Below, piece after piece: positions 14,777-57,466 of a DNA stretch of 64,000 bases (its first letter is position 1; each line of letters begins with the position of its first letter). A program made the translations under genes and the position numbers. Where the stretch lies: contig DAORUN010000003.1 of the NCBI GenBank assembly GCA_035433205.1, positions 4,574-68,573 of the forward strand, read 5' to 3'. The notes beneath the pieces were generated by a model. The model ran no database searches and was not told the origin of the DNA. It worked only from the letters and a program-made list of their open reading frames with translations. This stretch comes from Thermoflexales bacterium (lineage in GTDB: Bacteria; Chloroflexota; Anaerolineae; J036; Brachytrichaceae).

Positions 14777-16216
14777 TTATCCAATCATCGCGTGAGCAGC
14801 GCGGACGGCGTTTTTGGCATCCTCGCCGCCAACCACCACGCTGATTACGCACTCGCCCATGCCCTGCGCGATGGACAAAATGTTGATGCCAAGCTCGCCC
14901 AGCGCAGAGAAGACTTTGCCGCCCACCCCCGGCGTATCGGCAATGCCGTTGCCCACGCAAGTGATGATGGCCGCGTTCTCGTGCGTGTTCACGTTGTCAA
15001 TATCACCTTCGCTAATCTCGCGGTCAAACTCGCGTTGCAATTCCGCCACCACTTTGGCCGATGACAATTGCGGCACCACCAGACAAATATTTTGTTCCGA
15101 TGAAGCCTGAGTAATCATAAACACGCTGGTGCCGGTGCGGGCCACGCTGGTAAACGTGCGCCCGGCAATGCCCGGCACGCCGCGCATTCCAGCGCCGGTC
15201 ACGGTCACCACGCACACTTTTTCCAGCAGGGTGATGGCTTTCACGGGCGAGCTGTTTCGCTCTCCGTCTTTCGTGATCAACGTGCCGGGGTGATCTGGGT
15301 TGAATGTGTTTTTCACGCGCAGGGGAATGTGCTGCTCAATCAGCGGCGCAATCGTGAGCGGGTGAAGCACCTGCGCCCCAAAGAATGCCAAGCCAGCCAT
15401 CTCGGCCTGCGAGAGCACATCCACCGTTTTGGCCGATGGCTCAATGCGCGGGTCGGTGGTCAGCACGCCATTCACATCGGTGTAGTTCAACACAATGTCG
15501 GCATCCAGCGCGGCGCCCACGATGCTGGCGCTGTAATCACTTCCGCCGCGACCCAGCGTGGTCGGAATTCCCTTCGGCGTGCTGCCAATAAAACCGGTCA
15601 CAACCGGCACAACGCCTTTTTGCAAAAGCGGGGTCAGCCGCGCCCTGGTCATTTGTTTGGTGATGTCCATCAGAGGGGCGGCGTTTTGGTAATGATCGTT
15701 TGTGATCACAAATTCCGTGGCATCCAGGCTGATGGCGTCGGTGCCCTTGCTGCGCAGCGCCGCCGCCAAAATTCGCGCGGCCATTCGCTCACCCAGCCCG
15801 CTAATCGCGTCCAGCGCGCGCGGGGTGATCTCGCCCAGCACTTTTACGCTTCCGCACAAAGTCTCAAAGCCATCCAGCAATTGCTCAATCTCCGCGCTAA
15901 TTTCCGCGCGTTCATCCTCGTTTTCAATCACGGCCTTGATGGCATTTTCGTGCTTGGCCGAGAGTTCTCGCCGGATGCGGCGATACGTTTCACCATCGCC
16001 ATCGGCGGCGGTTTTGGCCGCGTTCAAAAGCGAATCGGTTACCTTGATTTGATCTGCTGGGGCCTTGTTGCCTGGCAGGGGCTTGCCCATTGCCGAGGTG
16101 ACGACCACCACGTGATCCCACGTGTGCGTGGCCTGTTTGACGATTTCGCACACCTGCTGCATCGCCTCTGCGCTGCCAACGGATGTGCCTCCGAATTTAA
16201 GAACTGATGATGACAT
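14777..16216 (-). CDS. lysC: Aspartate kinase
   Basis: MSSSVLKFGGTSVGSAEAM kinase N-terminus, a TLGRGGSDYSA motif and C-terminal ACT-type repeats. The 21 extra codons of the tracked ORF (to 16279) are encoded by the GAATTCT hairpin and were trimmed. Confidence 0.9.
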   Translation of the reverse strand: MSSSVLKFGGTSVGSAEAMQQVCEIVKQATHTWDHVVVVTSAMGKPLPGNKAPADQIKVTDSLLNAAKTAADGDGETYRRIRRELSAKHENAIKAVIENEDERAEISAEIEQLLDGFETLCGSVKVLGEITPRALDAISGLGERMAARILAAALRSKGTDAISLDATEFVITNDHYQNAAPLMDITKQMTRARLTPLLQKGVVPVVTGFIGSTPKGIPTTLGRGGSDYSASIVGAALDADIVLNYTDVNGVLTTDPRIEPSAKTVDVLSQAEMAGLAFFGAQVLHPLTIAPLIEQHIPLRVKNTFNPDHPGTLITKDGERNSSPVKAITLLEKVCVVTVTGAGMRGVPGIAGRTFTSVARTGTSVFMITQASSEQNICLVVPQLSSAKVVAELQREFDREISEGDIDNVNTHENAAIITCVGNGIADTPGVGGKVFSALGELGINILSIAQGMGECVISVVVGGEDAKNAVRAAHAMIG

Positions 16217-16228
16217 GATTTTGATTAC

Positions 16229-16296
16229 TGAATTCTGAATTCTGAATGCCGATTGCTGAAAACTTTCTGAATTCAGCATTCAATATTCAGAATTCA
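16229..16296. repeat. GAATTCT-type hairpin (21-nt arms, 19/21 complementary)
   Basis: TGAATTCTGAATTCTGAATGC (16229-16249) pairs with GCATTCAATATTCAGAATTCA (16276-16296). It lies between the HD-protein stop and the lysC start. Confidence 0.8.
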
Positions 16297-26272: not shown

Positions 26273-28495
26273 ATGTTTAGTTCACGCCCGCGCCTGCTCT
26301 CGCTCGCGCCCATCTTTTTTTTGATGGCGTTTTGGCTGGCTTTTTTTGCGCCAGTTATCGCGGGCAGCGCCATGTTTGAGCCAGGCGATTTCACCCTGCA
26401 ATTTTTGGCGTTCCGGCGCATCGCGTTTGAGCAATTCGCGCAAGGGCATTTGCCTGTTTTCACCGAGTGCATTTATTCCGGTTATCCCTTTCAGCAAGAC
26501 CCGCAAGCGCAAGTGCTTTACCCGCCCGTTCTGGCGTTCATGCTGATGGGTCGCGGGCTGGGGTGGGGCACGTATCCTCTGCAAGCCTTGCAATGGGAAG
26601 TGATGCTTCACACTCTGATGGCGGCCATCGGCATGTTTGCCTTTTTGCGCGAGCTAAAACTTTCTCGCATTCCTAGCGTGGCAGGTGCATTAACTTTTGC
26701 ATTTGGTGGCTATCTCACCAGTTACCCCATTTTGCAGACCGCCATTTTGGAAACAGCCGCGTGGCTGCCTTTGCTCATGCTGTTTTTGCATCGGGTGGTG
26801 ATGGATTCTCGGTGGGTCAGGCCTGCGCTGGCCGCCGCGTTGGTCGGTGCAATTTCGTTCACCGCGGGTCATCCGCAAACCTTGATGATCATGGTGTATG
26901 CCTGCGCCCTCGCGTTTGGCTGGTGGGCCAAAGAAACCGCACTGCCCGCCGCAAAGGCCATCCCCCGCGCCGTGTTTGTGATGCTATTTCTGGTCGCGTT
27001 CTCTGCCGCGCAACTCATCCCCTCGCTCTCGTTCATGCTCGGTTCCACCCGCGCCGGGCTGAATTACGAAACGGCTGGCGGCGGGTTTGGCTTGCATGAT
27101 ATCGCCCAATTTCTCATCCCCCGCGCGTTGGCAAACTGGTCTGCGCTGTACGTTGGGGTGGTGGGTTTAACTTTGGCGTTCCTAGCGCTCCGGGCGGTCA
27201 AAGCGCCCGGAGCGCTAAAACAAGCGACCGGGGCACTTACCAAACTCTTCATTTGGATGGCGCTTGGAGCGCTTGTCATCTCGTTTGGCATCAACGCATT
27301 TGGATTTGACATGGCCTACCTCGCCGCGCCCGGCTACCGCCAGTTCCAAAGCCAGGCGCGCCACGCACTGGTGATTGCCTTCGCGCTGGCGGCGCTGGCG
27401 GCGCTGGGTTTGCAAACGCTCATGACCTCCTCGCGGCGGCCTCGCGTGTTCAGCCGCGCGCTGGTTGTTGCGGCGATTGGGCTGGCGCTCATCCCGGCGG
27501 TTTTGTATTTTGGCGCAAAACCCATCGGCAACCTCTCGCCAGATGCGCCCCCCATCATTGCGCGGCTGTTTGTGCAAGCCGCGCTGTTTTTGGCGCTGGC
27601 ATGGGTTTTGGCCCGCCCGCGCCCGCTGGGCTGGGCGCTTCTCGCGCTGATGGCGCTTGACCTGCTCATCGCCCAGCAGACGGCCTCAACCGTACCATTT
27701 CGTGACCCCTTCCCGCCAAACAGCTTACTAACCGCAATTCCTAAAACGGATGAGCGCATCAACAACCATTTTGGTTTGCCACTGAACTATGGGTGTCTCA
27801 ATGGCCTCAATGAAATTGGCGGCGGATCACCCATCGTGCTGGCGACTTACAAGGAGTTTTTAGCGCGAACGCCAGAGGAAGTGCTTGCCAAACTGCTCAA
27901 TGTGCGCTATGCCGTTACGTGGCGCGGGGGGATGGGCACAGATAGCGGCGCGGTGATTCCATCCCACAAAATTGGAGAAGGCAAGCTGTATGACACGCCG
28001 GTGAACACCTTTGCGCTAGACTGGGAGCCGCGCCCCGGTTTTGCGTGGGTGGCAAGCAAAGTGACCGCCGTTTCTTTGCCCAATGAGATTTATGCGCGGA
28101 TGGCGGATAAATCGTTTGACCTGTTTAACGAGGTAATTGTGGAACAAAAAGACCTAACAGGTTTCCAAAACCTGTTAGGTCTCAGCAAAAATGTTGGCGT
28201 GGAGGGCAAAAGCGCGGGTTACATCAAAATTGCGGCCTCGCTGGATGCGCCCGGCATTTTGGTGGTGAGCGAGGCCTGGCACTGGAACTGGATCGCCCAA
28301 GTGGATGGCGCGGAAGTCAAACCCATTTTGGCCGATGGCGCTTTGATTGGCGTTCCGCTCGGCGCGGGTCATCACACGGTTGAGTTGAGCTACCGCCCGC
28401 TGGACTTGTGGGTTGGGGCAGGGGTAAGCGTGTTGGCGATATTAGCTGGTTTAATTTTGTTAGCCAGAAAGCCTAAAAGTCTGCGAGACTTTTAA
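26273..28495 (+). CDS. YfhO-family polytopic membrane protein (putative glycosyltransferase)
   Basis: The N-terminal FFAPVIAGSAMFEPGDFTLQFLAF...GHLPVFTECIYSGYPFQQDPQ and the C-terminal VVSEAWHWNWIAQVDGAEVKP...GAGHHTVELSYRP resemble YfhO family ends. More than 12 TM helices. Confidence 0.6.
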   Translation: MFSSRPRLLSLAPIFFLMAFWLAFFAPVIAGSAMFEPGDFTLQFLAFRRIAFEQFAQGHLPVFTECIYSGYPFQQDPQAQVLYPPVLAFMLMGRGLGWGTYPLQALQWEVMLHTLMAAIGMFAFLRELKLSRIPSVAGALTFAFGGYLTSYPILQTAILETAAWLPLLMLFLHRVVMDSRWVRPALAAALVGAISFTAGHPQTLMIMVYACALAFGWWAKETALPAAKAIPRAVFVMLFLVAFSAAQLIPSLSFMLGSTRAGLNYETAGGGFGLHDIAQFLIPRALANWSALYVGVVGLTLAFLALRAVKAPGALKQATGALTKLFIWMALGALVISFGINAFGFDMAYLAAPGYRQFQSQARHALVIAFALAALAALGLQTLMTSSRRPRVFSRALVVAAIGLALIPAVLYFGAKPIGNLSPDAPPIIARLFVQAALFLALAWVLARPRPLGWALLALMALDLLIAQQTASTVPFRDPFPPNSLLTAIPKTDERINNHFGLPLNYGCLNGLNEIGGGSPIVLATYKEFLARTPEEVLAKLLNVRYAVTWRGGMGTDSGAVIPSHKIGEGKLYDTPVNTFALDWEPRPGFAWVASKVTAVSLPNEIYARMADKSFDLFNEVIVEQKDLTGFQNLLGLSKNVGVEGKSAGYIKIAASLDAPGILVVSEAWHWNWIAQVDGAEVKPILADGALIGVPLGAGHHTVELSYRPLDLWVGAGVSVLAILAGLILLARKPKSLRDF
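28151..28181. repeat. Perfect 14-bp palindrome inside the YfhO-like CDS
   Basis: GACCTAACAGGTTT-cca-AAACCTGTTAGGTC. It encodes ...KDLTGFQNLLGLS... in frame. Confidence 0.8.
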
Positions 28496-29775: not shown

Positions 29776-31143
29776 TTACTTGTCGCCTTCCGCCTCGCAA
29801 ATCTGCCAGAATTTCTTCCATGCGCGGCCGCTCACTTCTTTACCTTTCGCGGCAATCTCGGCCTCATCCAGGGTGAGGAGTTTTCGGTCGGCCATGAGCA
29901 CGCGCCCGCCCACAATCGTGTGCGTCACCATCCCGCCATCCATGCCAAAGACCATGTGCCACGGCACGTTATCTTTGTGAATCTCGGTGAACGGATGGTA
30001 GTCCATCAAGATCACATCGCCCGGTGAGCCAGCCGCAAGAACGCCGGTGGTTTGCGGGAAGAACATTTGCGCAATTTTGGCGTTGTTCTGATACACCATG
30101 CCCGTGATTTTGTCCGCGCCCATCGCGCGTGGGTCCAGCGCGGTGACTTTATGCAGTTTGTCGCAAATGGTCATCTCGGCAAACGCGTCGTTGCTAAAGC
30201 CATCGTTGCCCAACCCCACGCAAATGCCGCACTCCAGCATGGTTTGCACGCGGGCCGCGCCCACGCCGTTGTTCATGTTGCTGCGCGGCTGGTGCATCAC
30301 TTTTGCGCCTGCGGCTTTTACCAGCTCCATCTCGGCCTCATCAATGTGAATGCAATGCGCCAACATGCTTTTGCTGTTGAGCGCATTGTGCCTGGCCAGC
30401 CGCTGCACCGCCCGCATGTTGTGGTGTTTGATGGCCTCCAGTTCGTCTGCGTTGTCTTCTGCGACATGGATGTGCAAAGGGATGCCCAGCTCGTTGGCAA
30501 GCCCGGCGCAGGTGTCCAGCGTGGCATCGCTCACGGTAAACTGCGCATGCACGCCAAAAGCCGCCGCCAAATTCTGAATTCTGAATTCTGAATTCTGAAT
30601 TCGTTTTGCAAATCGAACATTTTCTTCAATACCGCGTTTTGCGCCGTCCATGCCGTTGCGGTCGGTCACTTCGTAACACAGCCCGGCGCGCAGGCCGCTG
30701 GCCGCCACCGCGTCGGCAATTGCATCCAAAGAGCCTTCGATGGCATCCGGGCTGGCGTGATGGTCAATAAGGGTGGTTGTGCCGTGTTTGATGGCGTCTA
30801 CCAGGCATACCAGCGCGGAGTATTTGCTGCCTTCAATATCCAGAGCGCGATCCAACCGCCACCACAATTTTTGCAAAATTTCTACAAAGTTTTTGGCGGG
30901 CGCGCCCGGGATGTAAAGCCCTCGCGCAAAAGCGCCATAAAAATGGGTGTGCGAGCAGATGTTGCCCGGAAGAAGATACTTGCCCCCCGCGTCAATCGTG
31001 GTTGCGCCTGCGGGCGCGGCGATGAGGCCCTCGCTAATCTGGGCGATCACGCCGTCCGTTATCAACAGGCTGCCATCCCGAACGACGTGGTTGGGCTGGG
31101 TCATGGTGATGATGTTTGCGTGGGTTATGAGCAAGTTGGACAT
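29776..31143 (-). CDS. Amidohydrolase superfamily, SsnA/chlorohydrolase-like aminohydrolase
   Basis: Trimmed to the ATG at 31143 (MSNLLITHANIITM...). LLPGNICSHTHFYGAFARG is a metal-binding HxH block. It contains the in-frame GAATTCT repeat that encodes RIQNSEFRIQN. Confidence 0.7.
   Translation of the reverse strand: MSNLLITHANIITMTQPNHVVRDGSLLITDGVIAQISEGLIAAPAGATTIDAGGKYLLPGNICSHTHFYGAFARGLYIPGAPAKNFVEILQKLWWRLDRALDIEGSKYSALVCLVDAIKHGTTTLIDHHASPDAIEGSLDAIADAVAASGLRAGLCYEVTDRNGMDGAKRGIEENVRFAKRIQNSEFRIQNLAAAFGVHAQFTVSDATLDTCAGLANELGIPLHIHVAEDNADELEAIKHHNMRAVQRLARHNALNSKSMLAHCIHIDEAEMELVKAAGAKVMHQPRSNMNNGVGAARVQTMLECGICVGLGNDGFSNDAFAEMTICDKLHKVTALDPRAMGADKITGMVYQNNAKIAQMFFPQTTGVLAAGSPGDVILMDYHPFTEIHKDNVPWHMVFGMDGGMVTHTIVGGRVLMADRKLLTLDEAEIAAKGKEVSGRAWKKFWQICEAEGDK
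30569..30603. repeat. Five tandem GAATTCT-type heptamers inside the SsnA-like CDS
   Basis: AAATTCT GAATTCT GAATTCT GAATTCT GAATTCG. Read on the minus strand it encodes RIQNSEFRIQN in frame. Confidence 0.9.
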
Positions 31144-32229: not shown

Positions 32230-32232
32230 CAA

Positions 32233-32295
32233 GGATGTAGAGGATGACAGGGATGATGCGATTTCCAAGTCATCCAAGTCATCGAAGTCATCCCC
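32233..32295. repeat. Tandem 9-nt-unit hairpin (GGATGAnnn / GTCATCnAA)
   Basis: GGATGTAGA GGATGACAG GGATGATGC ... GTCATCCAA GTCATCGAA GTCATCCCC, between the rfbB stop and the rnz start. Confidence 0.7.
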
Positions 32296-32298
32296 TTC

Positions 32299-33216
32299 AT
32301 GTTTGAACTCACTTTCCTCGGCACAGCGGCCTCGGTGCCGCTCATCAAACGCGGATTGAGCAGCGCGGTGGTGGCGCACGATGAATACCGCATGATGGTG
32401 GATTGCGGCGAAGGCACGCAACGCCAGGTGCTGATGTCTGGCCTCGGTTTTCGGCGGCTGGAGCATATCTTTATCACTCACAGTCACCTCGACCACATTT
32501 TGGGGCTGGGCGGCATGTTGTCTACGCTGGGGCAATGGGAATCGGTGGAGCGGTTGACCATTTACGCCGGAGCCACCGCCTGTGAGAAGATCGCAGACCT
32601 CGTCACCAAAGTTGTTTTTCGCGGGGCGCGCCCGCCGGTGGCCATTGAGATGAAACCCGTTCAGCCGGGGGTTGTGCTTAAGGCCGAGGATTTTGATGTG
32701 GTGGCTTTCCCCGTGCGCCACCGCGGCCCAGATTGTTTTGGATACGTGTTTCAGGAGCATTCGCGCAGGCCGTTTTTGAATGACAAGGCTACCGAGCTGG
32801 GCGTGCCGCTTGGCCCGGAGCGCAAAACATTAATCGCCGGAAAACCCATCACCCTGAGCGATGGCCGAATTGTGCAACCCAATGACGTGCTGGGTGAGTT
32901 GCAGCGCGGGAGCAAACTGGTGATGACCGGCGATACGGGTGACACAGAGAGCCTTATCAAAATTTGCAAAGATGCCGATGTGCTGGTGACCGAAGCCACA
33001 TATTTGGCCGAAGATATTGGCCTTGCCCGTGATTATGGGCACAGCACAGCGGCAGAGGCCGCCACGCTGGCAAAAAACGCCGGGGTGGGGCAGCTCGTGC
33101 TCACACACATCTCTGGGCGTTACCCAGAAAACGTAATTGAAGCCGAAGCCCGCGCCATTTTTCCTAACACGGTTGTAGCGCGTGATTTTGATAAATTCAA
33201 GATCCGCGCCGCCTAG
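32299..33216 (+). CDS. rnz: Ribonuclease Z (metallo-beta-lactamase fold)
   Basis: MFELTFLGTAASVP, VDCGEGTQRQ and ITHSHLDHILGLGG motifs. 305 aa. Confidence 0.85.
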   Translation: MFELTFLGTAASVPLIKRGLSSAVVAHDEYRMMVDCGEGTQRQVLMSGLGFRRLEHIFITHSHLDHILGLGGMLSTLGQWESVERLTIYAGATACEKIADLVTKVVFRGARPPVAIEMKPVQPGVVLKAEDFDVVAFPVRHRGPDCFGYVFQEHSRRPFLNDKATELGVPLGPERKTLIAGKPITLSDGRIVQPNDVLGELQRGSKLVMTGDTGDTESLIKICKDADVLVTEATYLAEDIGLARDYGHSTAAEAATLAKNAGVGQLVLTHISGRYPENVIEAEARAIFPNTVVARDFDKFKIRAA

Positions 33217-49617: not shown

Positions 49618-49624
49618 GGCTGGT

Positions 49625-49684
49625 GGACGATAGACCATGGACGATGGACGATTAAAGGCCGCATATCGTCCATCGTCCATCGTC
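49625..49684. repeat. GGACGAT-type hairpin (16-bp stem)
   Basis: ATGGACGATGGACGAT (49637-49652) is complementary to ATCGTCCATCGTCCAT (49665-49680), followed by TTTTT. It lies between the GS-like and HPS genes. Confidence 0.8.
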
Positions 49685-57417: not shown

Positions 57418-57466
57418 AATTACGAATTACGAATTACGAATTACGCATGATTAGTAATTCGTAATT
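57418..57466. repeat. AATTACG-type tandem-unit hairpin
   Basis: Four exact AATTACG copies (57418-57445) are followed by TAATTCGTAATT (57455-57466), which is complementary to any two adjacent units. Confidence 0.85.

Follow-up and report, generated by a model that had tools for sequence, protein, structure and literature searches.

The stretch of DNA analyzed here (referred to as the window) comprises 64,000 nucleotides (nt) of contig DAORUN010000003.1 from the Thermoflexales assembly GCA_035433205.1. Its minus strand encodes a 455 amino acid (aa) amidohydrolase of the SsnA type (29776..31143), and a tandem array of a 7-nt unit is located inside this gene (30569..30603, minus strand). The window strand of the tract reads AAATTCT GAATTCT GAATTCT GAATTCT GAATTCG. 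Tandem Repeats Finder reported 4.7 perfect copies of period 7 (unit AATTCTG) at 30570-30602, with 100% matches and a score of 66. The coding strand, (GAATTCA)n, forms the stop-free sequence AAA CGA ATT CAG AAT TCA GAA TTC AGA ATT CAG AAT TTG, which is translated as K-RIQNSEFRIQN-L and supplies residues R181-L192 (RIQNSEFRIQNL) of the protein. The initial annotation of the window had reported a GAATTCT heptamer array inside this coding sequence and its translation as RIQNSEFRIQN with the frame unbroken, and both statements were confirmed. The 13-mer GAATTCTGAATTC was found 11 times in the window with at most one mismatch, versus 0.02 occurrences expected from shuffled sequences.

The gene itself was assessed by its profile score, its invariant columns and a structural model. 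Its product matches the NCBIfam profile NF005540 ('putative aminohydrolase SsnA') over the full length with 500.3 bits (cut-off 444) and TIGR03314 with 455.2 bits, just under the cut-off of 455.5. The invariant His and Asp columns of a 22-sequence alignment are retained, and the enzyme with its heptamer-coded loop is predicted to be intact; the family name itself carries the word 'putative'. Identical 35-nt tracts, apart from a single A/T polymorphism in a spacer, were present in 12 independent assemblies, and the tract is therefore not an assembly artefact. The polymorphic position is the first spacer base (window position 30596, A or T, encoding Q or L) and constitutes the sole difference between the tract of the window and those of several other assemblies. 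With T at this position, one unit is locally turned into the opposite-strand form GAATTCT. Folding of the tract as RNA yielded -15.4 kcal/mol (z = -1.3), and 12 of 200 shuffled sequences folded at least as well. The SsnA copy is a single arm without a significant palindrome, and an mRNA hairpin at this site was discarded as a candidate since the fold was no better than those of shuffles.

The position of the tract within the protein was analyzed by alignment and modeling. It follows the conserved ...ENVRFA motif and falls into a variable segment, whose length is 12 aa here, versus approximately 10 aa for most orthologues of the 22-sequence alignment. In the nearest solved homologue, the methylthioadenosine/S-adenosylhomocysteine deaminase 4f0r, the aligned segment is of nearly equal length. 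The DNA of this segment is mostly non-repetitive among 61 species-level orthologues, many of those from Caldilineaceae carrying KRLQANPNPKLGA, and family-level relatives possess non-repetitive loops of 6-14 aa. The SsnA loop is thus variable in both length and sequence among orthologues. Whether the segment after ...EENVRFAK is an insertion relative to orthologues had been raised as a check in the initial annotation, and the similar lengths and the mostly non-repetitive DNA of the aligned segments largely speak against it. The heptamer tract is not a clean insertion; it has overwritten a normal-length loop, the net gain being about 2 aa.

An AlphaFold2 model of SsnA (predicted local distance difference test score, pLDDT, 86.5; predicted template modeling score 0.89) contains a helix at residues 161-183, coil at 184-191 and a strand at 192-198 that is followed by the invariant His199. 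The block of residues 181-190 has a pLDDT of 70. The initial annotation expected the tract in a surface loop, and the model agrees as far as the helix end, the loop and the lowered confidence are concerned, while exposure follows from barrel topology. In the (beta/alpha)8 barrel of amidohydrolases, the catalytic ends of the strands and the alpha-to-beta loops are on opposite faces. Because of this topology the tract would be placed on the face opposite the active site, and residues 181-192 are predicted to be surface-exposed and away from the active site.

Alleles of the SsnA loop in close and distant relatives

Close relatives provided an allelic series for the loop, for which all identities to the window were calculated at the nucleotide level with the loop excluded. 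The loci L085 and L087-L094 are at least 99.5% identical outside the loop and carry the same 35-nt tract, with A or T at the first spacer (Q or L). The near-identical L104 and L105 share it, the latter on a contig with an N gap. At 94.9% identity, L081-L083 contain a different sequence, AGACGAT AGACGAT GGACGAC AGACGAT, aaaaaatgac, GGATCGT CCATCGT CCATCGT CCATTGT CCATT. This allele is a 69-nt in-frame two-arm hairpin of the ACGATGG family, which is translated as KTIDDGRQTIKNDGSSIVHRPLS and folds with -44.9 kcal/mol (z = -6.1); the L081-type protein carries the identical allele in 19 contigs. L084 (88%) has CGAATTGC followed by AGACGAA AGACGAA AGACGGA AGACGG, and L086 (91%) retains 23 nt (AAGACGATCGTCAATCGTCTCTT). 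The remnant in L086:560-700 (JGI 3300045290, Ga0493735_046884) shifts the frame and results in overlapping open reading frames (ORFs) of 199 and 258 aa. This frameshift, observed in a single 1.8-kb contig, may reflect a real pseudogene or an assembly error at the hairpin.

Four alleles of the loop therefore exist in one genus-level clade, and RIQNSEFRIQN is replaced in sister lineages by unrelated peptides of 13 to 23 aa. At this site it looks as if repeat DNA keeps rewriting a permissive loop. The window and L084 have the 5' flank AAACGAATT and the 3' flank ATTTGG in common, and because of these shared flanks there are hints that the GAATTC array may have grown from a pre-existing tract or replaced units within it.

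More distant genes were surveyed for ORF-internal perfect heptamer arrays with a minimum length of 14 nt. Among 158 SsnA genes, 9 contain a total of 11 such arrays, made of 8 unrelated units, at the position of residues 182-189 of the window protein, and 3 contain 5 arrays at residues 50-54. The AAATCCA-type arrays of L010:3175-3205, L013:3184-3203 and L018:3193-3229 were found at residues ~50-54, and their unit also occurs in flanking spacers. At the protein level, a 7-residue periodicity in the loop was detected in 14 of 112 homologues. On a tree calculated without the loop columns this trait needs 12 changes, and the well-supported branches force at least 8 independent gains. The array in the loop of L184:201-1553 (P0006, 65% aa identity to the window) consists of four AGAATCC units and one AGAATTC and is one base off the window unit. 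Common descent of these two arrays was rejected, as L184 is not sister to the window clade on the tree; the near-identical units may have arisen by convergence or derive from a shared unit pool. The loop of L185:201-1607 (P0009) is 20 aa longer and is made of CAAACGT and AAATCTC arrays. The species genomes nearest by SsnA protein are metagenome-assembled genomes of Thermoflexales or Anaerolineae (58-65% identity), and at the DNA level the nearest orthologues are ~70% identical in this species-genome set, which is without a same-genus member.

Heptamer repeats across the genome and the window

The SsnA tract belongs to a heptamer repeat system that extends over the whole assembly (3.43 Mb, 210 contigs, 57% G+C). 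Of the perfect arrays with at least 2.5 units, 412 have period 7; the neighboring periods 8 and 9 yielded 10 and 13. With a minimum length of 17 nt, 514 perfect period-7 arrays were obtained, which group into 67 unit families, approximately 15 of them main families. The largest are AATTACG (69 arrays), AAGACGG (47 arrays), ACGATGG and AAGGGTG (37 arrays each), AAAGTGC (34 arrays) and AATTCAG, which equals GAATTCT (33 arrays). The tract in SsnA is the only coding copy of the GAATTCT family, and the remaining 32 arrays are found in short spacers adjoining gene ends. Their typical layout is (GAATTCT)n, a variable loop and the inverted array, often with one perfect and one degenerate arm. Only the 7-nt unit is common to the copies, the loops and flanks being variable, and none of the GAATTCT hairpins has a GTAG or CGTC head. 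Across all families, a partner in inverted orientation lies within 80 nt for 256 of the 442 non-coding arrays. A 20-nt GAATTCT pattern was matched 18 times in this genome, and just 2 of 200 others from the class contained it, which indicates that the unit families are lineage-specific; two further family members gave short matches to the pattern. Restriction-site avoidance of GAATTC was considered and set aside, the deviation not being strong (482 sites observed versus 583 expected). A literature search for heptamer repeats, short tandemly repeated repetitive (STRR) sequences or in-frame palindromic elements in Chloroflexota revealed nothing specific.

Coding and non-coding arrays were separated with a crude classifier based on codon log-odds, for which long ORFs served as the training set. 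Open, coding-like frames were assigned to 72 of 492 arrays (15%), versus 62% of random sites. The ~70 arrays translated in frame, many of which are complete two-arm hairpins, reside in ~45 housekeeping proteins, several with two or more such segments. The resulting peptides are stereotyped (...KTEDGRR...LPSSVFR... and ...DDGRWTM...SSIVHRP...): (AAGACGG)n encodes KTEDGRR and its inverse PSSVFRL, and (GACGATG)n encodes DDGRWTM and its inverse HRPSSIV. Hosts that carry both arms were identified by Pfam (LigA, a carboxyltransferase, ThrRS and UvrA) or by motif (PriA, ClpB, aconitase, MnmA, MetH and LeuRS). Examples on contigs outside the window are C1:3816-6522 (PriA), C170:3482-5045 (LigA), C49:3677-6770 (UvrA), C72:10447-12871 (ThrRS), C10:47269-49681 (LeuRS), C18:7-3856 (MetH), C5:38084-40874 (aconitase) and C90:156-2826 (ClpB). 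Relative to E. coli LigA (4glx), the LigA protein contains a 16-aa repeat-coded insert, TEDGGRSLDDGRWTMD.

Which families enter genes depends strongly on stop codons. Where the unit is stop-free in both orientations, 67 of 256 arrays are coding, compared to 5 of 258 where one or both orientations contain a stop (odds ratio 18, p = 3.6e-17). The GAATTCT family has a TGA on one strand and its two-arm hairpin cannot be read through for this reason; the SsnA copy is in the open orientation. Such a single-armed copy would be expected to remain if repeats arise anywhere and selection filters them. As the AAAGTGC and AAAATGC families are open both ways, yet absent from genes, stops are not the whole filter. 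The initial annotation had compared the repeat to the Rickettsia palindromic elements (RPE) and suggested that its family enters coding DNA. At the genome level this view holds (~70 in-frame arrays, among them those in LigA, UvrA, ThrRS and PriA), but the SsnA copy itself is single-armed and not a net insertion.

Further repeats were mapped within the window. A two-arm GAATTCT hairpin, (GAATTCT)n - loop - (AGAATTC)n, occupies an intergenic position at 16229..16296 between a gene end at 16294 and the start of lysC at 16216, and its RNA fold is -27.5 kcal/mol (z = -7.05). Both its sequence and its fold bear out the earlier statement that it is built of the same unit as the SsnA tract. The lysC gene (aspartate kinase, 14777..16216, minus strand) is preceded in its stop-to-stop frame, which continues to 16279 through one hairpin arm, by 21 extra codons (...SAFRIQNS...) upstream of the likely start MSSSVLKFGGTS with its ATG at 16216. 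Since we take MSSSVLKFGGTS to be the canonical aspartokinase start, the FRIQNS extension noted earlier for this ORF is indeed spurious. Another hairpin, TGGACGA arm - loop - ATCGTCC arm at 49624..49684, is a member of the ACGATGG family, whose units also fill the SsnA loop of the relative L081; the coding frame of the hairpin is unconvincing here. A perfect AATTACG x4.0 array at 57418..57445 represents the most abundant heptamer family of the genome.

Two intergenic sites next to the SsnA gene differ between relatives. The hairpin of 9-nt units at 32230..32300, between an epimerase stop and a Lactamase_B start, has one unit fewer per arm in the window than in a strain at 99.2% identity and accounts for 12 of 38 mismatches in 6.7 kb. 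Its two arms thus evolve together and at a much higher rate than the flanks. The comparison with L085 (GCA_035426445.1, 99.9% identity) covers 6.7 kb. A GTGTAAG/TTACACG two-arm heptamer hairpin 3' of the neighboring GT4 gene is present in L081 (95% identity) and not in the window and thus constitutes a presence/absence polymorphism; compared to L081:4825-4963, the corresponding window region (~28400-28490) shows only a short simple stem-loop.

Origin and persistence of the tract

Taken together, we consider it probable that the SsnA tract is tolerated STRR-like repeat DNA, which is kept in frame in a permissive loop and turns over by gain and loss of units. Lineage-specific dispersed heptanucleotide tandem repeats fill this Thermoflexales genome, and the SsnA tract is a coding-strand member. 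Short intergenic spacers, with hairpins of two opposed arrays of one 7-nt unit, are their usual state. Repeats would also arise or land in genes, where selection would retain only in-frame, stop-free copies in structurally permissive loops. In SsnA, (GAATTCA)4.7 would encode the last turn of the helix 161-183 and the loop that leads to the beta-strand before His199. With this loop opposite the active site the enzyme would stay intact, and RIQNSEFRIQN would be without a role of its own. The present tract would be one state of a turnover in which slipped-strand or template-switch events add and remove units, the sister lineages having other units and one of them a frameshift. Family membership, the orientation and stop-codon filter, the loop position, the allelic series and the stability within the population were observed. 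We infer that slippage or template switching generates the changes, that the RIQNSEFRIQN peptide is neutral and that the tract has no regulatory role.

Several points weigh against this explanation. Slippage alone fails to explain why dozens of unlinked sites share each of approximately 15 specific units and why different families occupy one site in sister lineages, and the repeated units and family swaps fit the import of pre-formed units as well. The constancy of the unit number in the 12 assemblies applies to the assembly-consensus level, the genome-wide coding counts are approximate because of the crude classifier, and the neutrality of the peptide is presumed. Exposure of the loop and its distance from the active site are taken from a predicted model plus barrel topology and not from measured coordinates. 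It is conceivable, and we propose this only tentatively, that an active, lineage-specific DNA-writing or template-switching process repeatedly rewrites permissive loops as species diverge and that residues 181-192 of SsnA are a recurrent target of it and not merely a tolerant site. Exchange of unit families at a given site, concerted changes in the two hairpin arms and the occasional disruption of a gene would all result from such a process, which would genuinely diversify the loops of housekeeping enzymes.

A mobile palindromic element similar to RPE or to miniature inverted-repeat transposable elements, whose hairpin pieces are copied by an enzyme or by hairpin-templated synthesis, appears rather unlikely as the origin of the tract, which would then be an arm left after trimming. 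It would account for the presence of the same unit families at many unlinked loci, for the different families in the same SsnA loop of sister lineages (including the full 69-nt two-arm hairpin), for the hairpin 3' of the GT4 gene in L081 that the window does not have, and for the single-unit difference in both arms of the 9-nt-unit hairpin between strains of 99.2% identity. The near exclusion from genes of families with a stop in the second arm is also expected of a two-armed insert, and copying of pre-formed hairpins is a better explanation than tolerated turnover for the sharing of unit families and for the family swaps. Nevertheless, the copies have no consensus beyond the 7-nt unit, their loops and flanks differ, no target-site duplication was seen, and the SsnA tract is single-armed and not a net insertion. 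Its left flank CGAATT is shared with L084, which is without the GAATTC array, and this suggests growth from local sequence. In addition, the sole Y1_Tnp transposase gene of the genome (IS200/RAYT-type, C51:19145-19672) has direct copies of GAAATCGCGCCTTGCGGGCGTAA, a different repeat, on either side. A transposase of the type associated with repetitive extragenic palindromic (REP) sequences (RAYT) was for this reason rejected as the driver of the heptamer arrays. The 9-mer GAAATCGCG occurs 51 times on one strand of the genome and 35 times on the other, and the GAAATCGCG/GAAATCGCGCCTTGCGGGCGTAA repeat may be a separate REP-like family.

The two remaining explanations assign a function to the tract. 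The initial annotation had raised the possibility of a contingency switch. On this explanation, gain or loss of a single 7-nt unit would turn SsnA off and on at high frequency. The unit is not a multiple of three and lies inside the coding sequence, a change by one unit in either direction would shift the frame, and in L086 a frameshift located precisely in the SsnA loop splits the gene into products of 199 and 258 aa. However, this allele has a different tract and stems from the single short contig that may be misassembled. The tract has the same length in 12 of 12 assemblies of the population at the consensus level, the L081-type allele is identical in 19 contigs, and the host is a cytoplasmic metabolic enzyme whose tract is one of hundreds of similar arrays. 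Contingency loci require tracts of many units for a high slippage rate, and only 4.7 units are present here. In Haemophilus influenzae, phase variation is indeed driven by heptamer repeats (PMC8262952). On balance, a phase-variable SsnA is very improbable, and the proposed switch found no support. The least probable explanation is that the peptide or a GAATTC-palindrome mRNA hairpin has a selected function in SsnA, for instance as an interaction surface or in translational pausing. The unchanged tract length across the 12 assemblies and the ability of the array to self-pair (the fold of -15.4 kcal/mol) would fit such a role, but conservation at an identity of at least 99.5% is expected from recent common ancestry and the fold does not exceed those of shuffled sequences (z = -1.3; 12/200). 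Furthermore, sister lineages swap in unrelated sequences of 13 to 23 aa, and distant orthologues possess unrelated, non-repetitive loops.

The heptamer tract in SsnA has implications beyond this locus. Pure simple-sequence DNA can form part of the reading frame of an enzyme gene that looks ordinary, and the SsnA loop alleles offer a natural series in which slippage and copying can be compared as origins of heptamer repeats. The rule on stop codons and orientation is quantitative here and shows what filters such repeats, and the allelic series illustrates the sequence freedom of alpha-to-beta loops in triosephosphate isomerase (TIM) barrels. For genome annotation, heptamer tracts can produce spurious N-terminal extensions, as in lysC, which are a trap for start-codon calling, and can split genes, as in L086. 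They are also mistakable for domains or for phase-variation switches.

Comparison with known repeat systems

Two well-studied systems share single features with the repeats described here. Contingency loci based on simple sequence repeats (SSRs), such as the heptamer tracts of H. influenzae hmw1A, likewise have a unit that is not a multiple of three, so that a change in unit number would alter expression (PMC8262952). In contrast, the SsnA tract is short, displays no length polymorphism in 12 assemblies and resides in a housekeeping-type hydrolase, and the heptamer arrays of this genome have no link to surface or variable genes. REP sequences and bacterial interspersed mosaic elements (BIMEs) with their RAYT are also small dispersed hairpin-forming repeats at gene junctions (PMC3733652). 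Unlike these elements, the GAATTCT hairpins lack the GTAG/CGTC head and their arms are tandem arrays, while the Y1 gene is flanked by another repeat.

The consequences of the repeats for proteins resemble those of RPE, which were reportedly described by Ogata et al. in 2000. These elements measure 100-150 bp, have a conserved full-length consensus and are found in frame inside essential or enzyme genes, and the same family also occurs between genes. In both cases, an otherwise non-coding repeat with intergenic relatives is carried in frame and translated as an extra or replaced segment, which in SsnA is predicted to lie at the surface, and the protein is not destroyed. The SsnA copy shares with RPE the in-frame carriage in an intact gene, but it is a single-armed tract of 35 nt without palindromy, without a 100-150 bp consensus and without net insertion. 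Only the 7-nt unit is common to its relatives, and the taxon is unrelated. Some RPE-type traits occur elsewhere in the system, namely two arms in the L081 allele (z = -6.1) and a net insertion of 16 aa in LigA.

The closest overall similarity is to STRR. An excess of heptamer SSRs with several unit families per genome, an intergenic bias and occasional inverted pairs is known from cyanobacteria (STRR), Nostoc and Xanthomonas (PMC4692102). Examples are the Calothrix and Nostoc STRR, the GGGAATC repeat of Xanthomonas and the heptamer excess reported by Mrazek et al. 2007, as summarised in PMC4692102. The Thermoflexales repeats agree with these STRR (PMC4692102) in being tandem 7-nt units of several families per genome, with dozens of dispersed copies that are mostly intergenic and near gene ends, in forming inverted stem-loop pairs, in having some intragenic copies and in varying in length and sequence between close relatives. 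Tandem 7-nt units, multiple dispersed families, an excess of period 7 and, by the crude classifier, a mainly intergenic location were all found here, and only the cyanobacterial host was not. The system differs in its host, which belongs to the Chloroflexota (Thermoflexales) and not to the cyanobacteria or Xanthomonas, and in its AT-rich or GA-rich units, which are not G-quadruplex-forming. Here, moreover, ~70 arrays are translated in housekeeping enzymes, often as full two-arm hairpins, and one protein loop has alleles built from different units. In their construction and distribution, the repeats represent heptameric SSRs of the STRR type in a phylum new for them. In their effect, the in-frame carriage in enzymes, they behave like RPE, whose defining size and consensus they do not share.

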